IMG/VR virus record: IMGVR_UViG_2693429713_000009
Length of the DNA: 64,000 nt
Source of the DNA: a virus
Lineage: Duplodnaviria > Heunggongvirae > Uroviricota > Caudoviricetes
Strand: one strand, 5' to 3'
Numbering within the stretch: position 1 is the stretch's first letter; each line of letters starts with the position of its first letter. The notes beneath the pieces were generated by a model. That model saw only the letters and a program-made list of their open reading frames with translations. It did not search any database and had not been told where the DNA came from. Position numbers and translations under genes: made by a program. This document shows positions 4,064 to 45,142 of the stretch, in pieces.

Positions 4064-4431
4064 TGACCATCTCTGTTTTAGACCGCCTGAAATTAGGTAA
4101 AGAGCTATCAGATCTAATGCAGGCGCAGAAAACTGCGCCAGTATTGCAACGCGTCACCATTGGTAAGCAGATTGTTGATGTGATGCTGAAATTGGGCCTG
4201 GGGACTGCCGCGCAACCGGCAGCGGAACCGCAACAACAGACTGATCCTGTTGTAGATGAAGTCCCTAAGATAGTGACTGACTTCTTGGGCGGTGTGTTCA
4301 CAAAGTCCACACAAATGGAATTTATTGATGCGCTGCGTGGGATCTCAAACTATGTTGGCGAGTTCCTTACGTTGGAGCAGGCTAAAGAGCAGACCATAAG
4401 CTGGGTGAAAGCTAACGGTTATGCCGGGTAA
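4063..4431 (+). CDS. small Dar-operon protein (DdrA-like)
   Basis: 122 aa, start overlaps DarA-like stop. Confidence 0.4.
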   Translation: MTISVLDRLKLGKELSDLMQAQKTAPVLQRVTIGKQIVDVMLKLGLGTAAQPAAEPQQQTDPVVDEVPKIVTDFLGGVFTKSTQMEFIDALRGISNYVGEFLTLEQAKEQTISWVKANGYAG

Positions 4432-4513
4432 TCAAAAGGGGCTGAAATGCCCCTTTCACTTATCTGTTCTCACATAAATCACACACTTTTTACACTCACA
4501 GCTTTCTCTATAG

Positions 4514-5911
4514 TTGGAGTGTATTTTGAACAAATCCGTTACTTCTGCGCTTTCCGGGGCCACAGATATTAACAGCGTCATTGCTCTGGTTTCTTCATTA
4601 GAGAGGAAAGAAACACGCCTGGGGCGAAGTAGCTACGTAGTCACCAGCAAAGGTGCAGAGGTAAAGACGGCTTTTAAGGTCGTTGATGCCAGCAGTCTGA
4701 TCATTTCGAACAACCTTGACGGTACGATTAACCCGGCCTTCCCGGAAGAACTCCAACCACGAGATCGTACCCGGCTATCCAGCAAACTCCAGGTTAACCG
4801 TATTGCCTCCAATTTACGCCCGGCACAATTAACGGATTCCGGTATGAGCAGCCACGGAGCGCCGATAGTTGGTCCGGACAACGTTGTTGAATCCGGCAAC
4901 GGAAGGAGTATGGGTATCTGGCGTGCCTATGAGCAAGGACAGGCGGATGAGTATCGCCAGTACCTGATCGACCATGCGAAAGAGTTTGGTCTGAATCCTG
5001 ACGAAATTTCGCAAATCTCTATGCCCGTACTGGTGCGAGAAAGACTCACAGATGTAGACCGCGCTCAATTTGCCCGCGATTCAAACATTAGCGATCTGCA
5101 AGAGATGGCAGCAAGTGAAAAAGCGTATGCGGATGCGCAATTTCTCACTGAGAGCGTCATGGCGCTATTTAATCCTTCAGATGATGGAAATCTGCTGGCG
5201 CGGTCCAATGATGCGTTTATTCGTGCGTTTTTGCGCGAAATTGGCGATACAGCGACGGCAGGCTTGCTTACTGCCGATGGGCGTCCCACGAAACAGCTTA
5301 TCGATCGCATCCAGAATGCAATTTTTGCCAAAGCGTACAAGGATGAAAGGCTTGTTCGGCTGGTGTCGGAAGAGCCAGATCCGGAAATGCGTAATATCCT
5401 GACCGCATTAAATACGGCAGCCAGCGATTTTGCGCAAATGCAGTCGCTGTCTGGCGACGCTCACCATGACGCAGTAACAGGCTTAGTGGACGGTATAGAG
5501 CAGGTTAATGGCCTGGATACACAGGCGATAGCAGCACTCCAGGAAGCAATTAATCTTGTACGTGAAGCCAAAGACAACGGTCAGGCCGTTGAAGAAGTGA
5601 TCGCCCAAAGGGGGTTATTCGGCGATAGTACACCGGAAGCTGAGGCATTGGCGTTATTCATCGTAGCAAATAATCGCAGTGCGAAGCGTATGGGGGCAGC
5701 ATTCAAAAAAATGGCGCAAAAAATCAACGACGAGCTGACTCATAAACAACAGGCATTGGGCGATATGTTCGGCGGTGGCGATGTTGATCTGCGTCGTATT
5801 TTGTCTGCTGTATCTGATGAAATTGAGGGTGAATTTGGCGAAGGGAAAGGTCTGAACTTTGCTATGTTTGAAAATTCTACAGGTCTAAATAATTGCCGTA
5901 CGGAAAACTAA
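4514..5911 (+). CDS. hypothetical protein, head/Dar module
   Basis: 465 aa ORF, same strand operon, no motif recognised. Confidence 0.35.
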   Translation: MECILNKSVTSALSGATDINSVIALVSSLERKETRLGRSSYVVTSKGAEVKTAFKVVDASSLIISNNLDGTINPAFPEELQPRDRTRLSSKLQVNRIASNLRPAQLTDSGMSSHGAPIVGPDNVVESGNGRSMGIWRAYEQGQADEYRQYLIDHAKEFGLNPDEISQISMPVLVRERLTDVDRAQFARDSNISDLQEMAASEKAYADAQFLTESVMALFNPSDDGNLLARSNDAFIRAFLREIGDTATAGLLTADGRPTKQLIDRIQNAIFAKAYKDERLVRLVSEEPDPEMRNILTALNTAASDFAQMQSLSGDAHHDAVTGLVDGIEQVNGLDTQAIAALQEAINLVREAKDNGQAVEEVIAQRGLFGDSTPEAEALALFIVANNRSAKRMGAAFKKMAQKINDELTHKQQALGDMFGGGDVDLRRILSAVSDEIEGEFGEGKGLNFAMFENSTGLNNCRTEN

Positions 5912-15000: not shown

Positions 15001-18000
15001 AAGCTGTCTTTAATGCTGTGGAAATGGGGCGTCTTGACCTGGCGTCCGGTAAACACCGTGATGCGCAGAAGAAGAACAAGATTAAGGATCAGGCCGCGAA
15101 TACCGGTACAACGAAGAAGCAGAATATCCCGTACTTTGAGGATATGAACTTCGATAGCGTGATTGCCGACGAGGGGCATAACTACCGCAACTCCTTTAAT
15201 GCCGGGCGTGAAGCGGGACAACTGGCATATTTGCCTAACCCGGCAGTATCCAAGATGGCCCGCGACATGGCTGTAAAAGCTGCGTACATGATGAAACGCA
15301 ACAACGGGCGTGGTGTAGTCATGCTGACGGCAACTCCGCTGGTGAACAGTCCGATTGATGCCTTCAACATGCTGTCTACTGTCATTCCGCAGGAAGAGTG
15401 GATGCGCATGGGCATCATTACGCCTGATGATTTCGTTCGTGTGTTTGGCAAAACAGCCACAGTTCAGGTCCAGAAAATTTCCGGGGAAGTGGAAGAGAAG
15501 CAGGGGCTGGTGGGCTTCCAGAACCTTGACGGCCTGCGTGGTATTTTCCATCGTTGGACCACTCTGAAGACTGCTGCAGATGTCGGAGCGACGGTTAAAA
15601 TTCCCGACATCATTGAGAACACCTTGCAGATCCCGATGACAGGGGAGCAGGAGATTGCTTATGAAGAGCTTCGTAAGCGTGCTCAGGAGTTAAGTCGCAA
15701 TGATGAGCTGACAGTCGATGAAAACGGGCATATCACTAACGACAAACCGGATGATTTCATCTTCTCCATCATCCGTGACATGGACAAGGTTGCTATAGAC
15801 CCGGATCTGTATGCCAGTGCGATTACATTCCAGTTCCCCGTTGAGCTTGCAGACCAGGTAAAAGCTATTGCTGATGCCTTGCCAAAAGTAGCTGGCGGTA
15901 AAGTGGCAGATGATGTTGATGAGGCCGAGGAAGACGGCGCTGGCGGGCTGGTCAGTACGCGTACCAGCAAGGTAGTGAAGACCGCTTTTAGTGAACATCC
16001 GACGCATGTTGAAATACGTGCCAGCATTGAACTGGAAGCTGAAATACTTAAGGCTATTGCGGCTGCCGGTATTGATATGCAGCAGGTATCGCACCCCATC
16101 CCGCCGAAGTATGCCGCGCTGATCGAAAATCTTCGTGAAGGTCTGAAGAACGGTAAGCAGATCGTCTTTATTGATGAAAAAGCCCAGCACCAGAAGTTGC
16201 GCCGTATTATCGCCAGTGCACTGCAAATGCCGGAACAGGAGATTGGCATTATCAATGCGACGACAGTTAGCCAGGCTGGCGGCATCAAGCTGAAGAAGGT
16301 GAATAAGCCGACCGAACCTACTCCAAACAAAAACGGTGAATACAAAGAAGGGGCATGGGAAACCTACTACAGCAAACTTGCCCAATATGAGGATTATCTC
16401 TCAGCTAAAAATGATGCTGGCCTTGAGGGCATGGAAGGTATTGCCGCCGACTATAACGAAGGTCGCACGCGTATCATAATCTGTAACAAGAAGGCTGAAG
16501 TAGGTATTAACCTGCACATCGGGACAACCGATATCCACCACCTGACACTACCCTGGACACCAGCCAGTATCGACCAACGAAATGGGCGCGGTGCGCGCGT
16601 AGGTTCACCGCAAGAGAAGGTCAATGTTCACTACTATTGTGGCAAAGGCACATTCGACGACTTCCGTCTGGATACGCTGAAACGTAAGAAAGACTGGATC
16701 AAGATGGTGATGACCTCCGACATGTCAGAGATCGCCAATGGTGATGCGGATGATGCTGATGAACGCGCCATTATGCTGGCGGCAAACCCGGAAGAACGCC
16801 GCGCAATCATGGCTCGCCAGGCGCAAGAGCGTGAAGAACGTCTGAAACTGAAAGCACAGCGCGAGGCCAACAATGCTCTCGATATCTACCTGAAAGCGGC
16901 AAACGCCGCCGGAAAAGATATCGGCATGATGGAGACAGAACTGAAAAGCGCGATGGAACAGATAGAGTATTACCAGCGCAATCTTGACGACCTGATAAAA
17001 GCGGGTACGAACAGGAATGGGCAAAAATACGCGCTTGAGCAGTTGAGTAGCTACAGAAAACGTGCGCGGGTGCTGCGGTTTGCGATCACCAGGGCAAAAG
17101 ACGCGGATACCATAATGAAACGCTCTCGTGGTGATGTGGAGCGCGCTATTAAGTCTGGTGTGCTGGATATCAGTATCGATGTTATTCAGAACCCACAGGA
17201 ATATATGCGCACTGACAAGAATATCCTGTTGCATAAAGGTAGTTATTACCGTGCAGTCATTGATGATCGCGAAACAACAGCGATTGTCCGGGTGGAAAAA
17301 ATTGACGGTGAAAAAGCACAATACCTCTGCCGTATCGCCTGGCTGGATAGAGCAAGTCGTTACGCTCGAGCACCGGGGTCAATCGTTACATTGCCGTTTG
17401 ACTCTGTGATTGAAGCGGTAACTTTTGAAGAGGGGGTAGCTGAATCGCGCGCAACGGCTGCGCGTGGTGTTCAGTGCCACCAGCTATCAACAATACTTAC
17501 TCGCGATCAGTTCTATGATGCTATTCGCAATGGGGTAATGAATGTTATTGCTGGTAAACCTGGTAATGCATGGGGCGGTGGGTCAGCTATTAAATACTGG
17601 GCTTATCGCACAGATGATGGTCAGATCGCGCTGTCATCGACCTATGATGGCATGATAGGACAGAAAATCGGGCGTACATCGGATATTGCACCAGAGCAGT
17701 GGATTTACCCTGATATCAACAATGAGGCGCTGAAGCGTGAAGTGGCAAAAATACAAGCCAGTGATAATCCGCTGAATATCGTGGACGGAGAGGGATTCCT
17801 CCAGGCATTGTATGGGTATGATTACATCCAGGGAATGCAGGCATGGGGCGCACAAGCAACGATGGATGATGTTGCCCAGGAGTTCGAAAACTGGATGGCT
17901 GGGCGTGGTCTGTCAGGTCGTTCGCTTAATAAAGTCACTTCTGAAGATATTCTTAGCTTGTTCCGTAAACCGTCCGGAGAAGGTCTGGAATCATTCTGGA

Positions 18001-20855: not shown

Positions 20856-22079
20856 GTGACGGGAACAGCAATGAGTCAACACACTGATACTTCTAATCTG
20901 GAAATTATCTCGACAGCAATTGAAACGCTGCGCACACAAATCGCTCTTATACAGAAACGGAATCCGGGTGATGACCTGTCAAAGCGACTGCACGAGAGTG
21001 TCATTGCCACTACAGATAACCTGGTGGCGGAAATCAACAAGCTGCTTGATGATGGGGCAGTTGATTACAATAAGCTGGTGGATCAGTTTGAGGAATACCA
21101 ACAAGCCGTTAATGATGGCTTGATCCGTTTTTCACAAGTCACAGGCGTATCAGCGACAGTTGAAAGCCTGGGCGATGCAGTTAATCAATTTGCCGCGAAT
21201 ATGCGTAATGAGATCGGCAATCTGGAAGCGCGTCTTGAACAGGCAAATACACTGCGTAAATCTGCCGAAGCTGATTTGAACCGTTACAAAAAAGACTATC
21301 CGCCCAGCCTGACAAAGCGGCTGGATGTTGCGGAGAAGGATAACCGCACGCTGAAAAGAGAGCGCCGGGAACTAAAAGAGCGTTTAACCAAGCTCAATCA
21401 GCAATGCATTGATTATCAAGGCGAAGGCGTCACACTGCGTAAAAAGTTGGCTACAGCGCAGAGCATTATCGAAACATTAAAGCGAGAGTGCTCACAGCTT
21501 GGTCACGATCTGAACCGTGCTTGTGGCATGGGACAAAGACCAGAGACATTTCCACTTATGTATGACGGAAGGGATGCCATTGCCTACATCCATGAGTATC
21601 CGCACGGCCTGGTTGCGGAAACTGGGCAGCGTGGCGAAGCACTGCTGACGGCTAATTACCATCAACAAATCAGAACCAATCGCCTGTTAACGATGGATGT
21701 GATCCCATCGGTATGGGGAACGCCGCTTTACTATCGCCTGCCGGGCTTCGAAAAGGACTGGAATACCGACATAGACGAATGTCTCGCAGATAAAATTATG
21801 GCGTACCTGGAGACGGATTTTCCGCGCTTATATCGCCGGATTATGGACTCTAAGGATGCGCCAATCGATGAATTAAAAATGCGTCCGGAGACGCTGGAGG
21901 CAATCAAGCAGACGGAGTTTGATACTGTATTCAGTGTGGCCTGCATTCCAAGCTGTTTCCATGAAAGCATTCCGTTCATGCAAGGAGATCGTCGTCAGGA
22001 AATCATTGACGCTTGCCGGGTATGGGCGAACGAATGGGATAAGAAGAATGGGGGTGTAGAAGATCTTTACGGGAAATAA
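20856..22079 (+). CDS. hypothetical coiled-coil protein
   Basis: 407 aa; GTG in track, alternative ATG at 20871. Confidence 0.45.
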   Translation: MTGTAMSQHTDTSNLEIISTAIETLRTQIALIQKRNPGDDLSKRLHESVIATTDNLVAEINKLLDDGAVDYNKLVDQFEEYQQAVNDGLIRFSQVTGVSATVESLGDAVNQFAANMRNEIGNLEARLEQANTLRKSAEADLNRYKKDYPPSLTKRLDVAEKDNRTLKRERRELKERLTKLNQQCIDYQGEGVTLRKKLATAQSIIETLKRECSQLGHDLNRACGMGQRPETFPLMYDGRDAIAYIHEYPHGLVAETGQRGEALLTANYHQQIRTNRLLTMDVIPSVWGTPLYYRLPGFEKDWNTDIDECLADKIMAYLETDFPRLYRRIMDSKDAPIDELKMRPETLEAIKQTEFDTVFSVACIPSCFHESIPFMQGDRRQEIIDACRVWANEWDKKNGGVEDLYGK

Positions 22080-22081
22080 TG

Positions 22082-22091
22082 TGTTAGAAAT
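22082..22091. promoter_or_regulatory. operator-like motif TGTTAGAAAT
   Basis: At start of the non-coding RNA locus. Confidence 0.4.
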
Positions 22092-22237
22092 CTAAAATCA
22101 CAATTCGAATGTATTGATTGTGAAGGTAACTTAACATAGAATTTTCCTTGCTGGTGGGCGGTACCCACGTTTCGCTTGCTGGGCTTGATAGTCACTTATT
22201 GGTTATTGTTCACCCACCAGCATTTAACAAATTAAAG

Positions 22238-22247
22238 TGTTAGAAAA
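22238..22247. promoter_or_regulatory. operator-like motif TGTTAGAAAA
   Basis: Second site upstream of the tRNA/hairpin locus. Confidence 0.4.
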
Positions 22248-22588
22248 GTATAGTAACGCAAGAGCACGCTTTGGCACCGTGCAGGCCAAAGTTCAGTAGG
22301 TTTAGTGCGGAAAGTGGTTTCAGAGAGAGCACTTTGCGAAGTAAACGACAATACATGTTGAGCCACGGAAGGTCTTTTTAAGGTGTTCATTGATGATGGT
22401 CCGGCAGAGAGTAACGGTACATGCTGCATCTAATCATCAATGCACATCTTCAACATTAAGGAGGCATAGGGATTTTTGTGGCGGTTACCTTTTGCCCTGA
22501 GTCTCCTTAATGTTGCAGTAATGCACCTATGCGGATGTGGCCTTGCATTGTGTCTTGAAAGAATGGGGTAAGGCCGGGGATATCCCCA

Positions 22589-22603
22589 GGGGGAGGCACC
22601 CCC
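22589..22603 (+). repeat. GGGGG-AGGCA-CCCCC hairpin (GGAGGCACC family)
   Basis: One of three hairpins with identical loop AGGCA and covarying stems. Confidence 0.5.
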
Positions 22604-22829
22604 GCTGCAACGAACAGCCACAGACGGCAGTCGAGTGATGGAAACGTGCAAAGACTTTAAACCTCGTTACGGCTGGCGTGGCAAACGCGACAACCGAGAC
22701 AGAGCGGTGACGGGCGGAGAGAGTGCCGCATCAAGAAAGAAGCCGACTTGTGATCCCTTTCAGCGGGCATTTGAAAGTGAATCCAGCTCAGGCAGTCGGC
22801 TTCTTTCTTGTGTGAGATGTAGCGTATTT

Positions 22830-22853
22830 GCCCATCTTCGGGTGGGCTTTTTT
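22830..22853 (+). terminator. intrinsic terminator
   Basis: GCCCA-N-TGGGC hairpin followed by TTTTTT. Confidence 0.5.
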
Positions 22854-23290
22854 AGGGTTTTCGTCATGGTTAGCGACTTTGCGGCGGTTTAGAAACCGAC
22901 CATTAAAGTAAATGCAAACGATGATCTGATGATGGTAGCGGCCTAAGAAGCCAGACGCCACGGGGTATGAGTCGTCCCCCGTCAAAAAATCGACCGCAGA
23001 GTGTCCCCGTCTGTGTATTAGGGAACGGGGAGGCATAACAGGCAAGGGCGCTGGTGTGATTAACCAGATGAATGAGAAGGGTCAGGTCTTTCTGGTCAGC
23101 GCCCTTACCTGTTACGTCCCTCCCGCGTAACAGCCATTGCTTAATGGCATCCTGGGGGAATTTCTTGTAACGGGTATATCCCGTCATGCTGAAGGCGCTA
23201 ATCACGCTGGAAGCCAGGGTTATGCATCCCCTGTTACTGAATTGCAGCCAGGGCGCGGTGCGCCGAAAAGCATACGGAGGTGGAAGCCCT

Positions 23291-23313
23291 CGCCGGAGAC
23301 GTACCCGGCACAG
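23291..23313 (+). other. tRNA leader motif, diverged copy
   Basis: CGCCGGAGACGTACCCGGCACA resembles the conserved leader found at 23754, 24149, 24471. Confidence 0.35.
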
Positions 23314-23314
23314 T

Positions 23315-23391
23315 GGTGGTGTAGCTCAGTAGGATAGAGCAGCAGCCTTCTAAGCTGTCGGTCGGTGGTTCGAATCCACCCACCATCGCCA
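23315..23391 (+). tRNA. tRNA-Arg (anticodon TCT)
   Basis: Cloverleaf by eye: acceptor GGTGGTG/CACCATC, D arm GCTC..GAGC, anticodon loop CTTCTAA, T arm GGTGG-TTCGAAT-CCACC, encoded CCA. Confidence 0.75.
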
Positions 23392-23396
23392 ATTTA

Positions 23397-23483
23397 GGGG
23401 AGTTAGTCCGTAGGGGTAGCGGGGTAGACTGTAAATCTACTGTCATTGCGACTCGGATGGTTCGACTCCATCACTCCCCACCA
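23397..23483 (+). tRNA. tRNA-Tyr (anticodon GTA), long variable arm
   Basis: Acceptor GGGGAGT/ACTCCCC, anticodon stem-loop GTAGA-CTGTAAA-TCTAC, variable arm TGTCATTGCGACTCG, T arm GATGG-TTCGACT-CCATC, CCA. Confidence 0.65.
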
Positions 23484-23487
23484 AATT

Positions 23488-23563
23488 GCCGGTTTTGCTC
23501 AGTTGGTAGAGCGCCTGCCTTGTAAGCAGGATGTCAGCGGTTCGAGTCCGTTAACCGGCACCA
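23488..23563 (+). tRNA. tRNA-Thr (anticodon TGT)
   Basis: Acceptor GCCGGTT/AACCGGC, D arm GCTCAGTTGGTAGAGC, anticodon loop CTTGTAA, T loop TTCGAGT, CCA. Confidence 0.8.
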
Positions 23564-23564
23564 A

Positions 23565-23673
23565 CACAACAGGTAAGGGTATTTTGCGACGTCGGAGATC
23601 GCCGAGCTTGGCAGAGGGTTCGAATCCCTACGAAGTACCCTTACCGTTGTGATGAATGCGCAGGCTGATGCGC
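23565..23673 (+). repeat. long-stem hairpin repeat unit A (tRNA trailer element)
   Basis: CACAAC(A)GGTAAGGGTA pairs with TACCCTTACCGTTGTG; encloses T-arm-like AGGG-TTCGAAT-CCCT; followed by GATGAATGC and GCGCA-GGCTGA-TGCGC hairpin. Confidence 0.6.
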
Positions 23674-23753
23674 GAAAGACATTGCAGCTATTGCGGAAAA
23701 GAGCTGTCCGGCGGGGCAATTAAACGCCCGTGAGAGTCTGAAATAACCGCAAG

Positions 23754-23778
23754 CCGGAGATCAGCACCGGTCATCACA
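23754..23778 (+). other. conserved leader motif CCGGAGATCAGCACCGGTCATCACA
   Basis: One of three near-identical 25-nt copies preceding tRNA or trailer elements. Confidence 0.45.
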
Positions 23779-23856
23779 ACACAACAGGTAAGGGCATTCT
23801 CCTTATGGGGCTTGGCTTAAATGCATCGAGTGCTCTTACCGTTGTGATGAAGTGCA
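23775..23856 (+). repeat. long-stem hairpin repeat unit B
   Basis: ACAACAGGTAAGGGCATTC pairs with GAGTGCTCTTACCGTTGTG, then GATGAAGTGC tail. Confidence 0.55.
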
Positions 23857-23984
23857 GCTCTTAGAAGCAACCAGAAGATAAGCATCTGGCTTCACAACAT
23901 AAACCGCAGGAACGACCAATAAACGGTAGTCCGTATGGAGAACACCCCGTTGAGGAAGAGGCCTGGCCGGAACCGTAACCGGCA

Positions 23985-24101
23985 CTACAACGTTGAGAAC
24001 ACTGGCGTAACGGGGTCATATCCCAATCTATGAATAAATGTTGCGTTGCCGCGTGACAACCAGTGTTCTCAACATTGTGGTGAATGCACAGGCTGATGTG
24101 C
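23985..24101 (+). repeat. long-stem hairpin repeat unit C
   Basis: CTACAACGTTGAGAACACTGG pairs with CCAGTGTTCTCAACATTGTGG; stem sequence differs from unit A but flanks ACAAC and GTGGTGAATGC plus GCACA-GGCTGA-TGTGC hairpin are conserved; preceded by a tRNA-Thr-like 3' remnant. Confidence 0.55.
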
Positions 24102-24148
24102 CGCAACTACAGTAGTGCGCGCTTTGCGGGGCTTGCTACAACCCTGTG

Positions 24149-24173
24149 TCGGAGTTCAGCACCGACCATCACA
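24149..24173 (+). other. conserved leader motif TCGGAGTTCAGCACCGACCATCACA
   Basis: Second copy of 25-nt leader. Confidence 0.45.
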
Positions 24174-24260
24174 GTTTGATTCTCTGGCATGAGCATAACG
24201 CTGAAATAAGTCCAGTCTGGTGCGGTCTGATCACCCGCCGTTAGCTCCACGAAACGGAGC

Positions 24261-24371
24261 GCACAACAGGTAAGAGTATTTGTAGAGTTCGACTCTCTAC
24301 CGTGGGCTTTTTCCCGCGATGCGAGCCATAAATGCTCTTTCCGTTGTGGTGAATGCGCGTTGCTGGCGCGC
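24261..24371 (+). repeat. long-stem hairpin repeat unit D
   Basis: GCACAACAGGTAAGAGTATTT pairs with AAATGCTCTTTCCGTTGTGG; encloses T-arm-like GTAGAG-TTCGACT-CTCTAC; GTGGTGAATGC plus GCGCG hairpin. Confidence 0.55.
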
Positions 24372-24470
24372 AAGTCCGCCCTATGGCAACGAGGCGGTGT
24401 AGTAAATATCGATGCCTCAGTCATCAAGCGTACTGACCGGCCTTATGGGCTATGAAAAAAAGAGGCGCAG

Positions 24471-24494
24471 TCGGCGATCAGCACCGACCATCAC
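24471..24494 (+). other. conserved leader motif TCGGCGATCAGCACCGACCATCACA
   Basis: Third copy, directly upstream of tRNA-Ser-like element. Confidence 0.45.
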
Positions 24495-24501
24495 AATCAC
24501 T

Positions 24502-24588
24502 GGAGAGTAGGGAGCATGGTGCTCAAGCGGCCTTGAAAACCGTCCCATTGCGCAAGCGATGATGGTTCGATTCCATTACTCTCCGCCA
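24502..24588 (+). tRNA. tRNA-Ser-like (anticodon TGA) element, possibly degenerate
   Basis: Acceptor GGAGAGT/ACTCTCC plus G-CCA, anticodon loop CTTGAAA as in bacterial tRNA-Ser(UGA), T arm GATGG-TTCGATT-CCATT, long variable region; D arm and anticodon stem imperfect. Confidence 0.4.
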
Positions 24589-24720
24589 GTGCAACGTTAA
24601 GAGTATTTGGCTAATTAAGCGAATGCCGGAAGCAGAACCGGATCACCAAATGCGTACAGGCGTCATCGCCGCCCAGCCAGCCAAGTGCTCTTACCATTGC
24701 GGTGAATGCGGCTAAGCGCA
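24589..24720 (+). repeat. long-stem hairpin repeat unit E
   Basis: CAACGTTAAGAGTATTTGGCT pairs with AGCCAAGTGCTCTTACCATTGCGG; GTGAATGC plus TGCG-GCTAAG-CGCA hairpin. Confidence 0.5.
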
Positions 24721-24796
24721 CGCGGAACAGTTAAAACAATTTTCCTTAATAGTTAAGTCAAACATCCCGGCGTTAATTGTTAACTGGTTAACGTCA

Positions 24797-24811
24797 CCTG
24801 GAGGCACCAGG
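24797..24811 (+). repeat. CCTGG-AGGCA-CCAGG hairpin (GGAGGCACC family)
   Basis: Same loop as 22589 and 25605 copies with compensatory stem changes. Confidence 0.5.
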
Positions 24812-25211
24812 CACCGCAATCTAATAAAGTTTCAAGCAATGGAGTTTTTGTTGTCAGACTTCAGATATAGATGGTTGTGGAAGGAGAGCCTGTGCATAGT
24901 GCAGTTATTTCTTCCGCTATTTGTCTGCTTTTTCATGCTTCCTGAGCTGAAATACGCAATTTCAGACACTTTAAGCACTATCGTTACTTTTGTGTTTTAT
25001 CTTTACTTTGATTACTTATTGAGCACTAAAATCAATGAATTATCCGAGGAAATGCAAGGTGGCTGTAAGTGATGAATTTTTGGGCGTTTGCCGATAAGAA
25101 CCCTGGTTGGACATTTTTATTTTTGCTGGTGGTTGCATATGGGGTCGAGCAAGCGGCAAAAGCCTTACGCGGTTCTGGCAAAAAGCGTAAGCGGAATTAA
25201 CAGTAATCTGG

Positions 25212-25287
25212 CCCTTTAGCTCAGTGGTTAGAGCAGGCGACTCATAATCGCACGGTCACCGGTTCAAATCCGGTAGGGGCCACCATA
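25212..25287 (+). tRNA. tRNA-Ile2 (anticodon CAT, lysidine type)
   Basis: Near-identical by recall to E. coli ileX: GGCCCTTTAGCTCAGTGGTTAGAGCAGGCGACTCATAATCGC...TTCAAATCC...GGGGCCACCA. Confidence 0.75.
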
Positions 25288-25467
25288 TTTGGTTGTAACA
25301 CGGCGTCTGGCACATGCGTCGTTAGCGGTCTGGTGTAGCTGTTAGGTACCTTACTAACACTGCATGGGCACATCAGGTAGCCGGAATGTGCAAGTCACCG
25401 CTGGAGGGATAGCGGACTCAGGGACTCACCATCCTGGCGATTCGGTGTGACAGCCGGAATAGCACGG

Positions 25468-25537
25468 CGCACAACAGGAAAAGGCGTTTAATTAACGCGA
25501 GCGCCGTTTCCGTTGTGGTAATTGCGGCTATGCGCTC
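25468..25537 (+). repeat. long-stem hairpin repeat unit F
   Basis: CACAACAGGAAAAGGCG pairs with CGCCGTTTCCGTTGTGG; GTGGTAATTGC tail. Confidence 0.45.
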
Positions 25538-25604
25538 GTGACGAAGCCATTTTCATTCACTACGTTCTGATAAGTGACGTCGCCGGGAGTGGCTAACCTG
25601 GCAG

Positions 25605-25619
25605 GTGGAGGCACCACCG
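25605..25619 (+). repeat. GGTGG-AGGCA-CCACC hairpin (GGAGGCACC family)
   Basis: Third copy of loop AGGCA hairpin. Confidence 0.5.
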
Positions 25620-25739
25620 CCACAACTCCTCTCAATTCATCATATAGCCGCTCAGGCTGTACCTCTTAATTAATACGAAGTTACGACATCACTACCGGTA
25701 CTTCCGGGGGATAGTCGCGCGTGTAAAAAAGGAGACGTT

Positions 25740-26315
25740 ATGTTAATGGCGAACGATAACGCATATGCAGAAGAAGATCTCATTTTGAGTGACTTCATAG
25801 GGAAGCGGGAACGCTGGACCCAAAAGCGAGAGGAACTTTACGCCTCATTAGTTCGCAAAGGCGTCAATATCGAAACCGCACAGAGCGGCGATATGACAGT
25901 GGTAAGCGTTGGATTGCACGGTGTAAGCGTGTCAGCAATCAATCATGAGCCATACGTTGCGTTATCCGAGTCAATGGTAAGGTTAGTTAAGTTCCTGAAG
26001 TACACAGAAGCGAATAATGTAATCATTGGCAAAAAGAATATCCCTTTTTCCTCGGCTTTTTACTGGATGATGAAAGGGCTTGATGCCCGGCGGACATCAT
26101 GGCCTAAAGGGAGCTATATATCGATGTTCCGTGGCAGCATTGGCAGCAAAGAAAAGCTCTTCGAATTCTTGCCGGAAGAGGCATTCGATATTGTGGAAGG
26201 GTGCGATGTGATGGTGATGCCTCGCCTGGTAATGATGAATGGGGATTTACAGGCGCAGACAGACTGGTTTGCAACTGGTGTGGATATTATCGCGACTGAC
26301 TGGGAGGCTTTCTGA
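25740..26315 (+). CDS. hypothetical protein with DUF2829-like region
   Basis: 191 aa; SSAFYWMMKGLDARRTSWPKGSYISMF and C-terminal ATDWEAF resemble DUF2829. Confidence 0.4.
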   Translation: MLMANDNAYAEEDLILSDFIGKRERWTQKREELYASLVRKGVNIETAQSGDMTVVSVGLHGVSVSAINHEPYVALSESMVRLVKFLKYTEANNVIIGKKNIPFSSAFYWMMKGLDARRTSWPKGSYISMFRGSIGSKEKLFEFLPEEAFDIVEGCDVMVMPRLVMMNGDLQAQTDWFATGVDIIATDWEAF

Positions 26316-44146: not shown

Positions 44147-45142
44147 TCAGTTATTGAACGTGATCACTCCGCGCTCGATGGCGAAGTCGAAAAGCTGGTT
44201 AGCGGCTACATAAAGGCGTATGCCATGTGCTTTTTCCCATGCCCGGACATCGTTTTCTGCGCTTCTGGCGCAGTCATCGCAAAGAGGAACAGCCCAGCGG
44301 TCGTGTTCGTTTAACGAGCGGGCACGGTACATGAACGGGTGATTAACCTTGCCACCGCAGCCTACACACGGACGAGACACCACAAACCGGAGATAAGCCT
44401 GGCTTTTTCCGAGTAAGGTTTTTGGACGGCGCATATATAGGAGGCCAGAATCCTCATCGACGGACAGATTGACGATCTGCTCTGCGGAAATATCCACCAG
44501 CTCGCGGGTACTATGCTCCCAGGTAATATCCGACTCTTTCAGAGTGCCGGTAGGGATTTCAGTTTTTGGCTGACAAAATGCAATGCGACCAGCTTCATCA
44601 GGCAGTTCGTCTTTAAGATTCCGGCGAATGGCCCAAAAGGTGAGTTCAACCATGCTCAGATCGCGATCTGGCGGAAGTTTTAACTCGCTGGCAGCCCAGT
44701 TCATAATCCAGTTGGCGCGATTCCGTGACAGTTGGTCTTCCAGCTTGCCGTATCCCTTCATCATGTATTCCGCATCATGCTTCCAGCACAGGCGAACGGC
44801 AGAACCGTTATAGAAATGGGTGGTTAGCTGGTGGCTGCAATCGCGCTTATCATGCGCCTGGCAATCGTGAATGTTGGTGCTAACCCAGTGAACGAGAGAA
44901 TCCTCACCACCTAACGCGTTAAATACGCGCTCACTTTGAAAAAAGGGTGCCAGTGACTGGTTGGCAACCAGTGAATAATTCAGGTCAACGACACCATCAG
45001 GGGTTTTTTCAGCCTGTTCACGCGGTAATGGGGATATAAGAAAACGGCGTCCTGCGCCGATGTAATTGCTGGTGGGCTTATCTACAGGAAAGACAGCCAC
45101 ACCAGTTTCATTTACGACATATGGGGTGATTATTGCACTCAT
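44147..45142 (-). CDS. hypothetical protein, DUF968-like
   Basis: 331 aa; C-terminal Cys cluster CVGCGG...CDDC; family assignment from memory. Confidence 0.35.
   Translation of the reverse strand: MSAIITPYVVNETGVAVFPVDKPTSNYIGAGRRFLISPLPREQAEKTPDGVVDLNYSLVANQSLAPFFQSERVFNALGGEDSLVHWVSTNIHDCQAHDKRDCSHQLTTHFYNGSAVRLCWKHDAEYMMKGYGKLEDQLSRNRANWIMNWAASELKLPPDRDLSMVELTFWAIRRNLKDELPDEAGRIAFCQPKTEIPTGTLKESDITWEHSTRELVDISAEQIVNLSVDEDSGLLYMRRPKTLLGKSQAYLRFVVSRPCVGCGGKVNHPFMYRARSLNEHDRWAVPLCDDCARSAENDVRAWEKAHGIRLYVAANQLFDFAIERGVITFNN

Follow-up and report, generated by a model that had tools for sequence, protein, structure and literature searches.

A recurrent long stem with near-invariant arms in the tRNA and putative small-RNA locus of a D6/P1-like phage-plasmid and in other coliphages

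The 64,000 nt of the IMG/VR virus record IMGVR_UViG_2693429713_000009 that were analysed here, referred to as the window, include a 3.6 kb locus (positions 22080-25739) in which five tRNA genes are interleaved with eight copies of a long, conserved stem. A preliminary description of this locus had proposed an array of tRNA cassettes, most of which had lost the tRNA whilst retaining a leader and a trailer structure. Escherichia phage D6 is the best match to the locus (95.7% identity over 73% of its length), P1, P7, RCS47 and SJ46 match it over 35-47%, and approximately 1,000 plasmids, mostly non-mobilizable, also do so, with a top match of 99.3%. A C4 antisense RNA and its targets are encoded in the window as well and, given these matches, the window is, as judged from its sequence, a D6/P1-like phage-plasmid.

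The arms of the long stem are nearly invariant, with the consensus CACAAC[A]GGTAAGAG…CTCTTWCCGTTGTG. Its geometry comprises 6 bp (CACAAC/GTTGTG), a 1-nt bulge on the 5′ side, 2 bp, a single mismatch position that is usually U.U, and at least 10 bp that include conserved U.G pairs. In total about 19 bp enclose a variable interior, here termed the cargo, of 30-330 nt. A covariance model of this stem, built from 38 family members, finds eight copies within 22443-25547, all on the + strand, and no other match in the 64-kb window; all eight (19.6-78 bits) carry either the arms CACAAC[A]GGTAAGRG / CYCTTWCCGTTGTG or compensated variants of the same geometry. The preliminary description had counted six such hairpins, and whilst repeat finding, folding and the covariance model bear out all six, the count rises to eight with the copies at 22443-22548 and 23037-23113. 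The stems (T), the second modules that follow them (B) and the tRNA genes are arranged as follows, with predicted pairings and covariance model scores.

22443-22548, + strand: long stem T0 (model match, 24.4 bits, E = 1.6e-6), arms CAACATTAAGGAG / CTCCTTAATGTTG at 22451-22515, inverted repeat I1
22512-22611, + strand: module B0, GTTGCAG (22512-22518) pairing with CTGCAAC (22605-22611), terminal GGAGGCAC hairpin at 22587-22604; T0 and B0 together cover 22451-22611
23036-23114, + strand: long stem Tx (model match 23037-23113), arms TAACAGGCAAGGGCGCTG / CAGCGCCCTTACCTGTTA without the bulged A, inverted repeat I2
23315-23391, + strand: tRNA-Arg(TCT) (ARAGORN; Rfam tRNA, 70 bits)
23397-23483, + strand: tRNA-Tyr(GTA) (ARAGORN; Rfam tRNA, 43.8 bits), sharing 92% identity with tRNA-Tyr from an rV5-like phage
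23488-23563, + strand: tRNA-Thr(TGT) (ARAGORN; Rfam tRNA, 70.4 bits), 97% identical to P1 trnT
23565-23780, + strand: Unit 1, consisting of T1 (23565-23651, 78 bits) and then B1
23646-23655 with 23771-23780: closing helix GTTGTGATGA / TCATCACAAC of B1, which holds a small hairpin GCGCAGGCTGATGCGC, a spacer and the 'leader' hairpin CCGGAGATCAGCACCGG (repeat families D1-D6)
23780-23898, + strand: Unit 2, consisting of T2 (23780-23846, 66.2 bits) and then a short B2
23841-23852 with 23890-23898: GTTGTGATGAAG / CTTCACAAC, closing B2 around hairpin CCAGAAGATAAGCATCTGG
23966-24174, + strand: Unit 3, starting with the minihelix GCCGGAACCGTAACCGGC (23966-23983), likely a collapsed tRNA-Thr acceptor stem
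23983-24082, + strand: long stem T3 (63.7 bits), arms fully compensated and a C.A mismatch replacing the bulge; inverted repeat I4, 23 nt, 91% complementary
24075-24082 with 24167-24174: TTGTGGTG / CATCACAG, closing B3, preceded by a small hairpin GCACAGGCTGATGTGC
24262-24496, + strand: Unit 4, with T4 (24262-24348, 74.8 bits), whose cargo has a T-arm-like hairpin GTAGAGTTCGACTCTCTAC
24344-24351 with 24489-24496: TTGTGGTG / CATCACAA, closing B4, preceded by a small hairpin GCGCGTTGCTGGCGCGC and ending 5 nt 5′ of tRNA-Ser
24502-24588, + strand: tRNA-Ser(TGA), atypical, 87 nt (ARAGORN), 89% identical to the tRNA-Ser of rV5-like phages
24590-24819, + strand: Unit 5, consisting of T5 (24590-24701, 47.2 bits) and then B5 (24697-24819)
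24697-24704 with 24812-24819: closing pairing of B5, outer stem TTGCGGTG / CACCGCAA, terminal hairpin CACCTGGAGGCACCAGG
25210-25285, + strand: tRNA-Met/Ile2(CAT) (ARAGORN, Rfam), 97% identical to trnI of P1 (tRNA-Ile2 according to the P1 record)
25470-25626, + strand: Unit 6, with T6 (25470-25517, 60.8 bits), a short cargo and compensated arms GGAAAAGGCG / CGCCGTTTCC; repeat D9
25512-25519 with 25619-25626: GTTGTGGT / GCCACAAC, closing B6, terminal hairpin CAGGTGGAGGCACCACC, 113 nt 5′ of the Tad2-like gene that follows the locus

Amongst 15 diverse copies of the stem, both partners have changed in 12 of the 19 pairs, and paired cells make up 91.9%; none of 500 shuffles reached these values, and slid partners were paired in 35-55%. 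The arms were picked by eye, which introduces some bias toward structure, but the compensatory changes are independent of that choice. Within the window, compensated upper stems are seen in T3 (GTTGAGAACACTG/CAGTGTTCTCAAC), T6 (the arms given above) and T0 (ATTAAGGAG/CTCCTTAAT). Since the U.G pairs are conserved and the bulge falls in the 5′ arm every time, an RNA of the + strand is indicated. Tx matches the model on both strands (19.6-20.5 bits) because it is nearly palindromic. The fold of T1, whose cargo includes a T-arm-like hairpin GGGTTCGAATCCC, has an energy of -41.4 kcal/mol (z = -5.8), and the stems of the window, with 19-23 paired positions, have the length of an RNase III duplex (about 20 bp, or two helical turns). 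No Rfam family matches the long stems, in the window or lambda copies scanned, either at gathering thresholds or at E ≤ 10, and a full-text literature search with the arm sequences returned no relevant match. A reading as terminators or attenuators was rejected, as the stems have no T-run and the locus has a single terminator, at 22830-22855. Bacterial Y RNA (YrlA-like) was likewise considered: no Rfam Y RNA matches at E ≤ 10, and T-arm-like hairpins, which would be compared with the tRNA-like domain of a Y RNA, occur in only some cargos.

The five tRNAs are located where the preliminary description had placed them, all being found by ARAGORN and four confirmed with the Rfam tRNA family (RF00005; 43.8-70.4 bits for Arg, Tyr, Thr and Met/Ile2, threshold 29). 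tRNA-Ser(TGA) matches only tRNA-Sec in Rfam, at 40 bits (threshold 47); according to the D6 record, the amino acid of its Ser-like tRNA is not called by tRNAscan-SE. The earlier placement of a stem directly 3′ of tRNA-Thr and of tRNA-Ser also stands, each stem beginning 1 nt past the CCA. A tRNA-Thr-like remnant, noted earlier before T3, is plausibly a collapsed acceptor minihelix, GCCGG…CGTAACCGGCA (23966-23983), a remnant that is likewise found just before the stem in four contigs of lambdoid type. In the rV5-like array of phage phita32 (L008), an unannotated tRNA-like gene is seen at 2689-2787, between tRNA-Ser and tRNA-Thr; ARAGORN reports it as 'tRNA-???' with a four-base anticodon (atcc), and both its acceptor stem and its T-arm are normal.

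Downstream of the stems, the four copies of the motif that had been described as a tRNA leader are indeed present (23749, 23867, 24144 and 24466; repeat family D2), but each proves to be a small hairpin plus a strand, TCAYCACAAC, whose partner is the GTTGTGRTGA with which the preceding stem ends, so that a second module is closed. Such a complement to the foot of the stem is found, as an exact match, 36-280 nt downstream in 83 of 106 distinct stems by an anchor-based test, for which the chance level is approximately 21% as estimated for a 5-mer in about 245 nt. The four nt adjoining the foot are paired in 64% of cells, compared with 52% in permutations, of which 1 in 5000 reached the observed value. 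This test replaced an earlier one of the second-module helix in which G.U was allowed everywhere, and which was uninformative. The second module of lambda has the same arrangement, GTTGTGCTG…CAGCACAAC, closed by a GTTGTG…CACAAC helix. As GTTGTG is complementary in both directions, it can pair upstream, within the stem, or downstream, within the second module; these pairings may either compete or form a chain in which each CACAAC would pair with the preceding GTTGTG.

Three further hairpins with an AGGCA loop had been reported, and all three are found (GGAGGCAC at 22587-22604, 24795-24811 and 25602-25618). By sequence comparison they are the ends of modules that resemble STnc100 and the dicB leader. 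Positions 31-147 of the 206 in the Rfam STnc100 model (RF02076) align to 24698-24818, within B5, at 42.5 bits, which falls short of the gathering threshold (47 bits). For the two remaining GGAGGCAC modules the family has no match at E ≤ 10. B5 has the outer stem of STnc100, GGUGAAU with a small hairpin, and the terminal CACCNGGAGGCACCNGGCACC hairpin; B0 and B6 share these ends, and only these ends. STnc100 itself belongs, like its relative PasD, to the small RNAs of prophages (Zhu, Shabalina and Storz, 10.64898/2026.05.13.724894). DNA homologous to B5 forms the dicF-dicB spacer in prophage Qin of E. coli K-12 and in an Stx1c phage, and in both the window and Qin the STnc100-like modules stop 20-113 nt 5′ of start codons.

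Beyond the window, a distant blast match of Unit 5 led to a canonical copy of the stem in phage lambda (44789-44862; CACAACAGGTAAGAGCATTG…CAGTGCTCTTTCCGTTGTG), beginning about 8 nt after the T-run of the tR′ terminator. As its cargo, T5 has 65 nt with two hairpins (24613-24677), an element with 98.5% identity to the 65 nt that follow the lambda stem (44866-44930). The lambda late leader, from tR′ to S, differs from the window in having a single stem copy and no tRNAs. A scan of viral contigs with the 15-nt 5′ arm gave at least 120 loci and, among the matches listed, 94 of 130 have a matching 3′ arm 25-400 nt downstream, at least 35 unrelated cargo families lie between near-identical arms, and a tRNA is near the stem in only about 20 of 121 loci. 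The pattern is thus the reverse of an ordinary structured RNA, with a constant stem sequence and an arbitrary interior. Far from belonging to a family of tRNA trailers, as had been suggested, the stem is a widespread coliphage element, of which the lambda copy and most lambdoid copies have no tRNA, their usual place being a few nt past tR′, and the Qin copy precedes DicF. It is unannotated in the lambda RefSeq record, the P1 record and the E. coli RefSeq genomes under the matches. Dozens of lambdoid contigs have the element with Q (PF06530) on one side and genes for a holin or lysozyme on the other and, where identified, these Q and lysis genes are on its strand; the Pfam scan covered six ORFs flanking the element in lambdoid contigs, together with four ORFs of the window. 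The 72 distinct upstream contexts include 24 terminator T-runs, of several terminator types, 3 intact tRNA-Thr 3′ ends and 4 GCCGG…CGTAACCGGCA minihelices. Some lambdoid contigs have tRNAs downstream of the stem, at distances from a few to several hundred nt.

Several observations concern the cargos themselves. Canonical T-arm hairpins (a 5-6 bp stem with a TTCGANT loop) occur in unrelated cargos, namely T1 (23565-23651), T4 (24262-24348) and those of contigs L030, L063, L090 and L115, and some cargos, such as that of L030, resemble tRNAs without an anticodon arm mounted on the long stem. In two lambdoid contigs (L083 and L025), a cargo of about 170 nt contains a core like that of a type I hammerhead (CUGACGAG…CGAAAC…GUC; 2189-2235 in L083), with a score of 24.7 bits where the threshold is 34 (E = 0.0014). 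The 65-nt element shared with lambda is composed of the hairpins CCGG-AAGCAGAA-CCGG and GGCG-UCAUCGC-CGCC and has no Rfam match; it also occurs 3′ of tRNA-Ser in rV5-like phages (L008, 2609-2672) with one compensated hairpin pair (GUCG…CGAC), and is enclosed by a helix every time, a different one each time. In one lambdoid contig (L044, 3718-4230), a free-standing ORF like an HNH-AP2 homing endonuclease ends about 55 nt 5′ of the stem.

With regard to prophage Qin in E. coli K-12, a diverged stem lies 5′ of dicF (L133, about 15174-15258), with arms CATAACGCGAAAGCGCA… / …TGCGCTTCCGGTTGTG that match the consensus at 14 and 16 of 20 positions. In predicted folds, the dot-bracket pattern is identical in Qin, the Stx1c phage, lambda and T4 of the window, being 6-7 bp, then a bulge of 1 nt, 2 bp, one 1x1 mismatch and at least 10 bp. 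Of 95 distinct contexts of the Qin-type stem, 75 have DicF next, at approximately +137 nt. A 190-nt DicF species, whose 5′ end is made by RNase III, is lost in an rnc mutant (Ragunathan and Vanderpool, 10.1101/2023.04.14.536235, confirming Faubladier et al. 1990). By calculation, a species of this length that stops at the 3′ end annotated for DicF would start at L133:15246, which is within the 3′ arm of the stem (15240-15258). RNA-seq of the wild type versus an rnc mutant gives an RNase III-dependent site at 1649470, within the dicF-dicB spacer module that is homologous to B5, which is a weak site as it is covered by only 26 reads. The two loci are further alike in that the dicF-dicB DNA is homologous to 24697-24819 of the window and in having, in each case, a repressor-controlled polycistronic transcript (putative in the window). 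They differ in that Qin has a single stem, with cargos that, in the sample, mostly vary little around a small number of related sequences, whereas the window has eight copies with unrelated cargos and interleaved tRNAs.

The units of the locus vary amongst its close relatives, in keeping with the modular, turnover-prone array that had been proposed: all parts are on one strand, and stem number, first tRNA slot and coding slot all differ between relatives. Between tRNA-Thr and tRNA-Ser there are two stems in D6 and in plasmids L004 and L006, three in L003, L005 and L007, and four in the window, with Unit 4 missing in the closest plasmid, L003. The first tRNA slot holds either Arg-Tyr or Asn, and the coding slot one of three alternative gene sets. 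The T4 cargo is joined to a lambda-type second module in contig L097, and the lambda cargo to at least four different second modules; since the same cargo is found on different second modules, breakpoints fall in the conserved arms. Rv5-like virulent phages share tRNA-Tyr (92%), tRNA-Ser (89%) and the 65-nt element (82%) with the window.

The remaining features of the locus and its borders are these.

20856-22079: pmgS-like gene, 5′ neighbour of the locus
22078-22246, + strand: putative control region, with a promoter between copies of the 13-mer AWWGTGTTAGAAA at 22078-22090 and 22234-22246
22114-22142, + strand: sigma-70-like promoter TTGATT-17-TAGAAT, the sole promoter-like site in 21900-25900 (promoter scan)
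22732-22810, + strand: perfect 17-bp hairpin, inverted repeat I9
22830-22855, + strand: strong intrinsic terminator, GCCCATCTTCGGGTGGGC plus a run of six T, 3′ of the 17-bp hairpin (terminator scan)
24839-25072, + strand: ORF 1, 77 aa, hydrophobic
25072 (ATG) or 25069 (GTG) to 25200, + strand: ORF 2, 42-43 aa, hydrophobic, with AAGGTGG 5′ of the ATG, a good Shine-Dalgarno sequence
25740-26315, + strand: Tad2-like gene, 3′ neighbour of the locus, homologue of D6 orf6 (PF11195, E = 1.1e-9)

The 13-mer AWWGTGTTAGAAA occurs nine times in the window, where 0.35 occurrences are expected (9884, 20829, 22078, 22234, 32572, 45181, 49771, 50433 and 59984). A heteroimmune C1 repressor of the D6 type probably has its operator in this 13-mer, and the two copies beside the promoter are candidate operators, placed as at P1 Pban; the P1-type C1 operator (ATTGCTCTAATAAATTT, with up to 3 mismatches) is absent from the window. 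One AWWGTGTTAGAAA copy is located about 100 nt 5′ of the c4 targets. The stretch 22732-22855 corresponds to the 'dicF-like' region of the P1 record (P1 annotation, start of the blast match) and may be a separate small RNA, although DicF itself (RF00039) has no match in 21900-25900 at E ≤ 10, compared with 35.6 bits in the Stx1c phage. It overlaps a doubtful 85-aa ORF (22635-22892).

The locus had been said to have no convincing ORF, which does not hold for 24839-25200, where the two small hydrophobic ORFs overlap. ORF 2 is annotated as a CDS in the near-identical plasmids L004 and L006 and is 92-94% conserved beside tRNA-Ile2 in other cassette types; neither ORF has a Pfam match, and in relatives this slot holds tciA/tciB (TerB, DUF3927) or an SPFH protein gene. 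Directly 3′ of the array, the PF11195 domain in the gene at 25740-26315 places a Tad2-like, Thoeris anti-defence gene next to the tRNAs and small RNAs.

The P1 counterpart of the locus is the leader of the ban operon, which opens with the C1-controlled Pban/Oban and for which the P1 record further gives the 'dicF-like region', trnA, trnT, tciA/B/C, trnI and ban, with plp and upl on the opposite strand. The two stretches of DNA are homologous, with about 91% identity across 42% of the region; they are built of like parts, and P1 itself carries four stem copies. The two differ in that the D6-like array lies between pmgS and the Tad2-like gene rather than 5′ of ban, with more stems, other tRNAs and an interrupted plp in the window. 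In P1 (NC_005856, L002), plp ('putative lipoprotein') and upl occupy 4118-4687 on the minus strand, corresponding to 23537-24106 of the window, and run exactly antisense to the trnT end and to three of the long-stem hairpins. The predicted protein Plp is rich in Cys, Arg and Ser, and the plp-homologous DNA of the window is split by an extra unit. Probably, plp and upl are not genes, and they are flagged here as likely annotation errors.

We hold, with moderate confidence, that the stems are RNase III-type processing sites of a long precursor which also serve as recombination anchors, with the locus as a whole being a mostly non-coding, polycistronic RNA operon of the + strand under repressor control. 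Transcription would start at the promoter at 22114-22142, flanked by candidate operators of the phage repressor, and the transcript would contain the five tRNAs, the hairpin RNA that ends in the terminator, three STnc100/dicB-leader-like modules and the two small ORFs, and may reach the Tad2-like gene. Host RNase III would cut the stems as double-stranded RNA and so split the precursor into units. The tRNAs would then keep only short flanks, to be removed by RNase P and exonucleases, and the modules that resemble small RNAs would be freed or delimited. By its title, Daniels et al. 1988 (Virology 167:568) reports RNase III sites in vivo in the lambda late transcript. The arms would double as short homologies at which units and cargos could be gained, lost and swapped: as they are near-identical between units and between unrelated phages, they are suited to recombination, which would explain the turnover of units. 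Comparable punctuation is known from the processing stems of 16S and 23S rRNA and from the RNase III sites of T7 early genes, where host RNase III cuts long irregular duplexes spaced along a polycistronic precursor. Those stems each have a sequence of their own, whereas one arm sequence is reused here across cargos and unrelated phages. The PeSL cassettes of T4-type phages (Arbiol et al. 2010) are reportedly repeated stem-loop cassettes with an early promoter that mark modular shuffling in plastic regions; the likeness lies in short conserved stem-loop repeats at the boundaries of shuffled modules, the difference in the promoter, of which the present locus has one candidate site in 4 kb, fewer than shuffled sequence, and none that goes with the units.

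A number of points weigh against this operon interpretation. Cleavage by RNase III, whilst most likely at the stems of the window by analogy, is demonstrated in the literature for Qin only, and the cut in Qin is placed at the stem by calculation from a reported length rather than by a mapped nucleotide. The Qin stem is, moreover, a diverged member, with a covariance model score of only 8.3 bits (E = 0.22), and its link to the family rests on the shared geometry and the 14-16 of 20 arm positions. In a minimum-energy fold of the whole lambda leader, the second-module helix is preferred over the full long stem. Cargos fold no better than shuffled sequence, their z-scores being centred on zero (mean z = -0.36), and consequently a function of the cargos is neither supported nor excluded, with no sign of selected RNAs. 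Finally, a plain RNase III site would need no near-invariant arms, and their near-invariance means that a more specific factor may read them.

In another reading the stem is a generic release scaffold, from which RNase III or a factor reading the invariant, bulged lower stem would excise the cargo, so that it would act as a plug-in socket for diverse small RNAs. The locus of the P1/D6 type would then be an array of eight sockets, with cargos swapped by arm recombination amongst lambdoid, P1-like and rV5-like phages, and the range of cargos would run from tRNA-like minihelices and a hammerhead-like ribozyme to the 65-nt element of lambda, possibly with decoys or regulators as well. The likeness would be to the basal stem of a pri-miRNA, in which a constant stem sets the processing of variable hairpins. 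We regard this as unlikely. Also unlikely is the cassette model of the preliminary description, of leader-tRNA-trailer cassettes whose flanking structures outlasted most of the tRNAs. The stems 1 nt after the CCA of Thr and Ser, the end of B4 5 nt before tRNA-Ser, the collapsed tRNA-Thr-like minihelix before T3 and before the stems of four lambdoid contigs, the T-arm hairpins in the cargos of T1, T4, L030, L063, L090 and L115, and the tRNAs a few to a few hundred nt downstream in some lambdoid contigs all speak for it. It fares poorly elsewhere, as lambda and about 100 of the 121 loci (among the matches listed) have a stem without a nearby tRNA, a terminator rather than a tRNA is the commonest identifiable upstream neighbour, and operons of the Qin type have DicF as the neighbour. 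The 'leader', furthermore, pairs with the 3′ foot of the preceding stem and is not part of the next tRNA. The units are most likely not cassettes that have lost a tRNA.

Two other readings place the function elsewhere. A DNA-level element, whether of MITE, REP or attC type or a pure recombination linker, with arms kept for a recombinase or transposase and no function in RNA, would fit the near-invariant arms, the at least 35 unrelated cargos with sharp boundaries, the several copies per locus, the occurrence in lambdoid, P1-like and rV5-like phages and the one cargo with different second modules; its AAC…GTT ends are also faintly like those of an integron attC. We nevertheless think it quite improbable, because all eight copies and all tRNAs are on one strand, the bulge is always in the 5′ arm, Q and lysis genes are co-oriented where identified, conserved U.G pairs would become C.A mismatches on the other strand, and diverged copies hold the geometry by compensatory change rather than the sequence. 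As specific candidates, an integron attC was rejected on its ends (CACAAC / GTTGTGR as opposed to RYYYAAC / GTTRRRY, with 2 of 4 degenerate R′ positions misfitting) and is also disfavoured by a variable part that is inside the hairpin and not between hairpins, whilst MITE and REP elements were rejected on the single orientation and the strand-specific wobble pairs; no repeat borders the arms in the copies read, no systematic search for target-site duplications having been made, nor any for an integrase or transposase beside the elements. A conformational RNA switch, in which GTTGTG would pair upstream or downstream and so control dicB in Qin, or the small ORFs and the Tad2-like gene in the window, is very unlikely on present evidence. 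The two pairings are mutually exclusive and both covary, to the extent that three strands of T5/B5 have changed together (TGCAAC, ATTGCG and CACCGCAA), the STnc100-like modules end shortly before start codons in both loci, and the fold of the whole lambda leader favours the downstream pairing. Units 1-4, however, have no downstream ORF, no ligand or other factor is known, and the chain of helices can be drawn without conflict if each CACAAC pairs with the preceding GTTGTG. A switch would in any case be compatible with an operon cut by RNase III, and does not exclude it.

Lambda, P1 and the dicBF region of Qin have all been heavily studied and all carry this structured RNA element, for which no description as a family was found. 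Under the reading of the locus as an RNase III-processed operon, the stem gives a testable account of how long non-coding phage leaders with tRNAs and small RNAs are cut, and it links the RNase III-dependent step of DicF biogenesis to a conserved structure. If cargos are indeed released, the array would be a natural, modular system of small-RNA expression and a possible template for design. For the phage-plasmids themselves, the stem would account for their mosaic tRNA regions.

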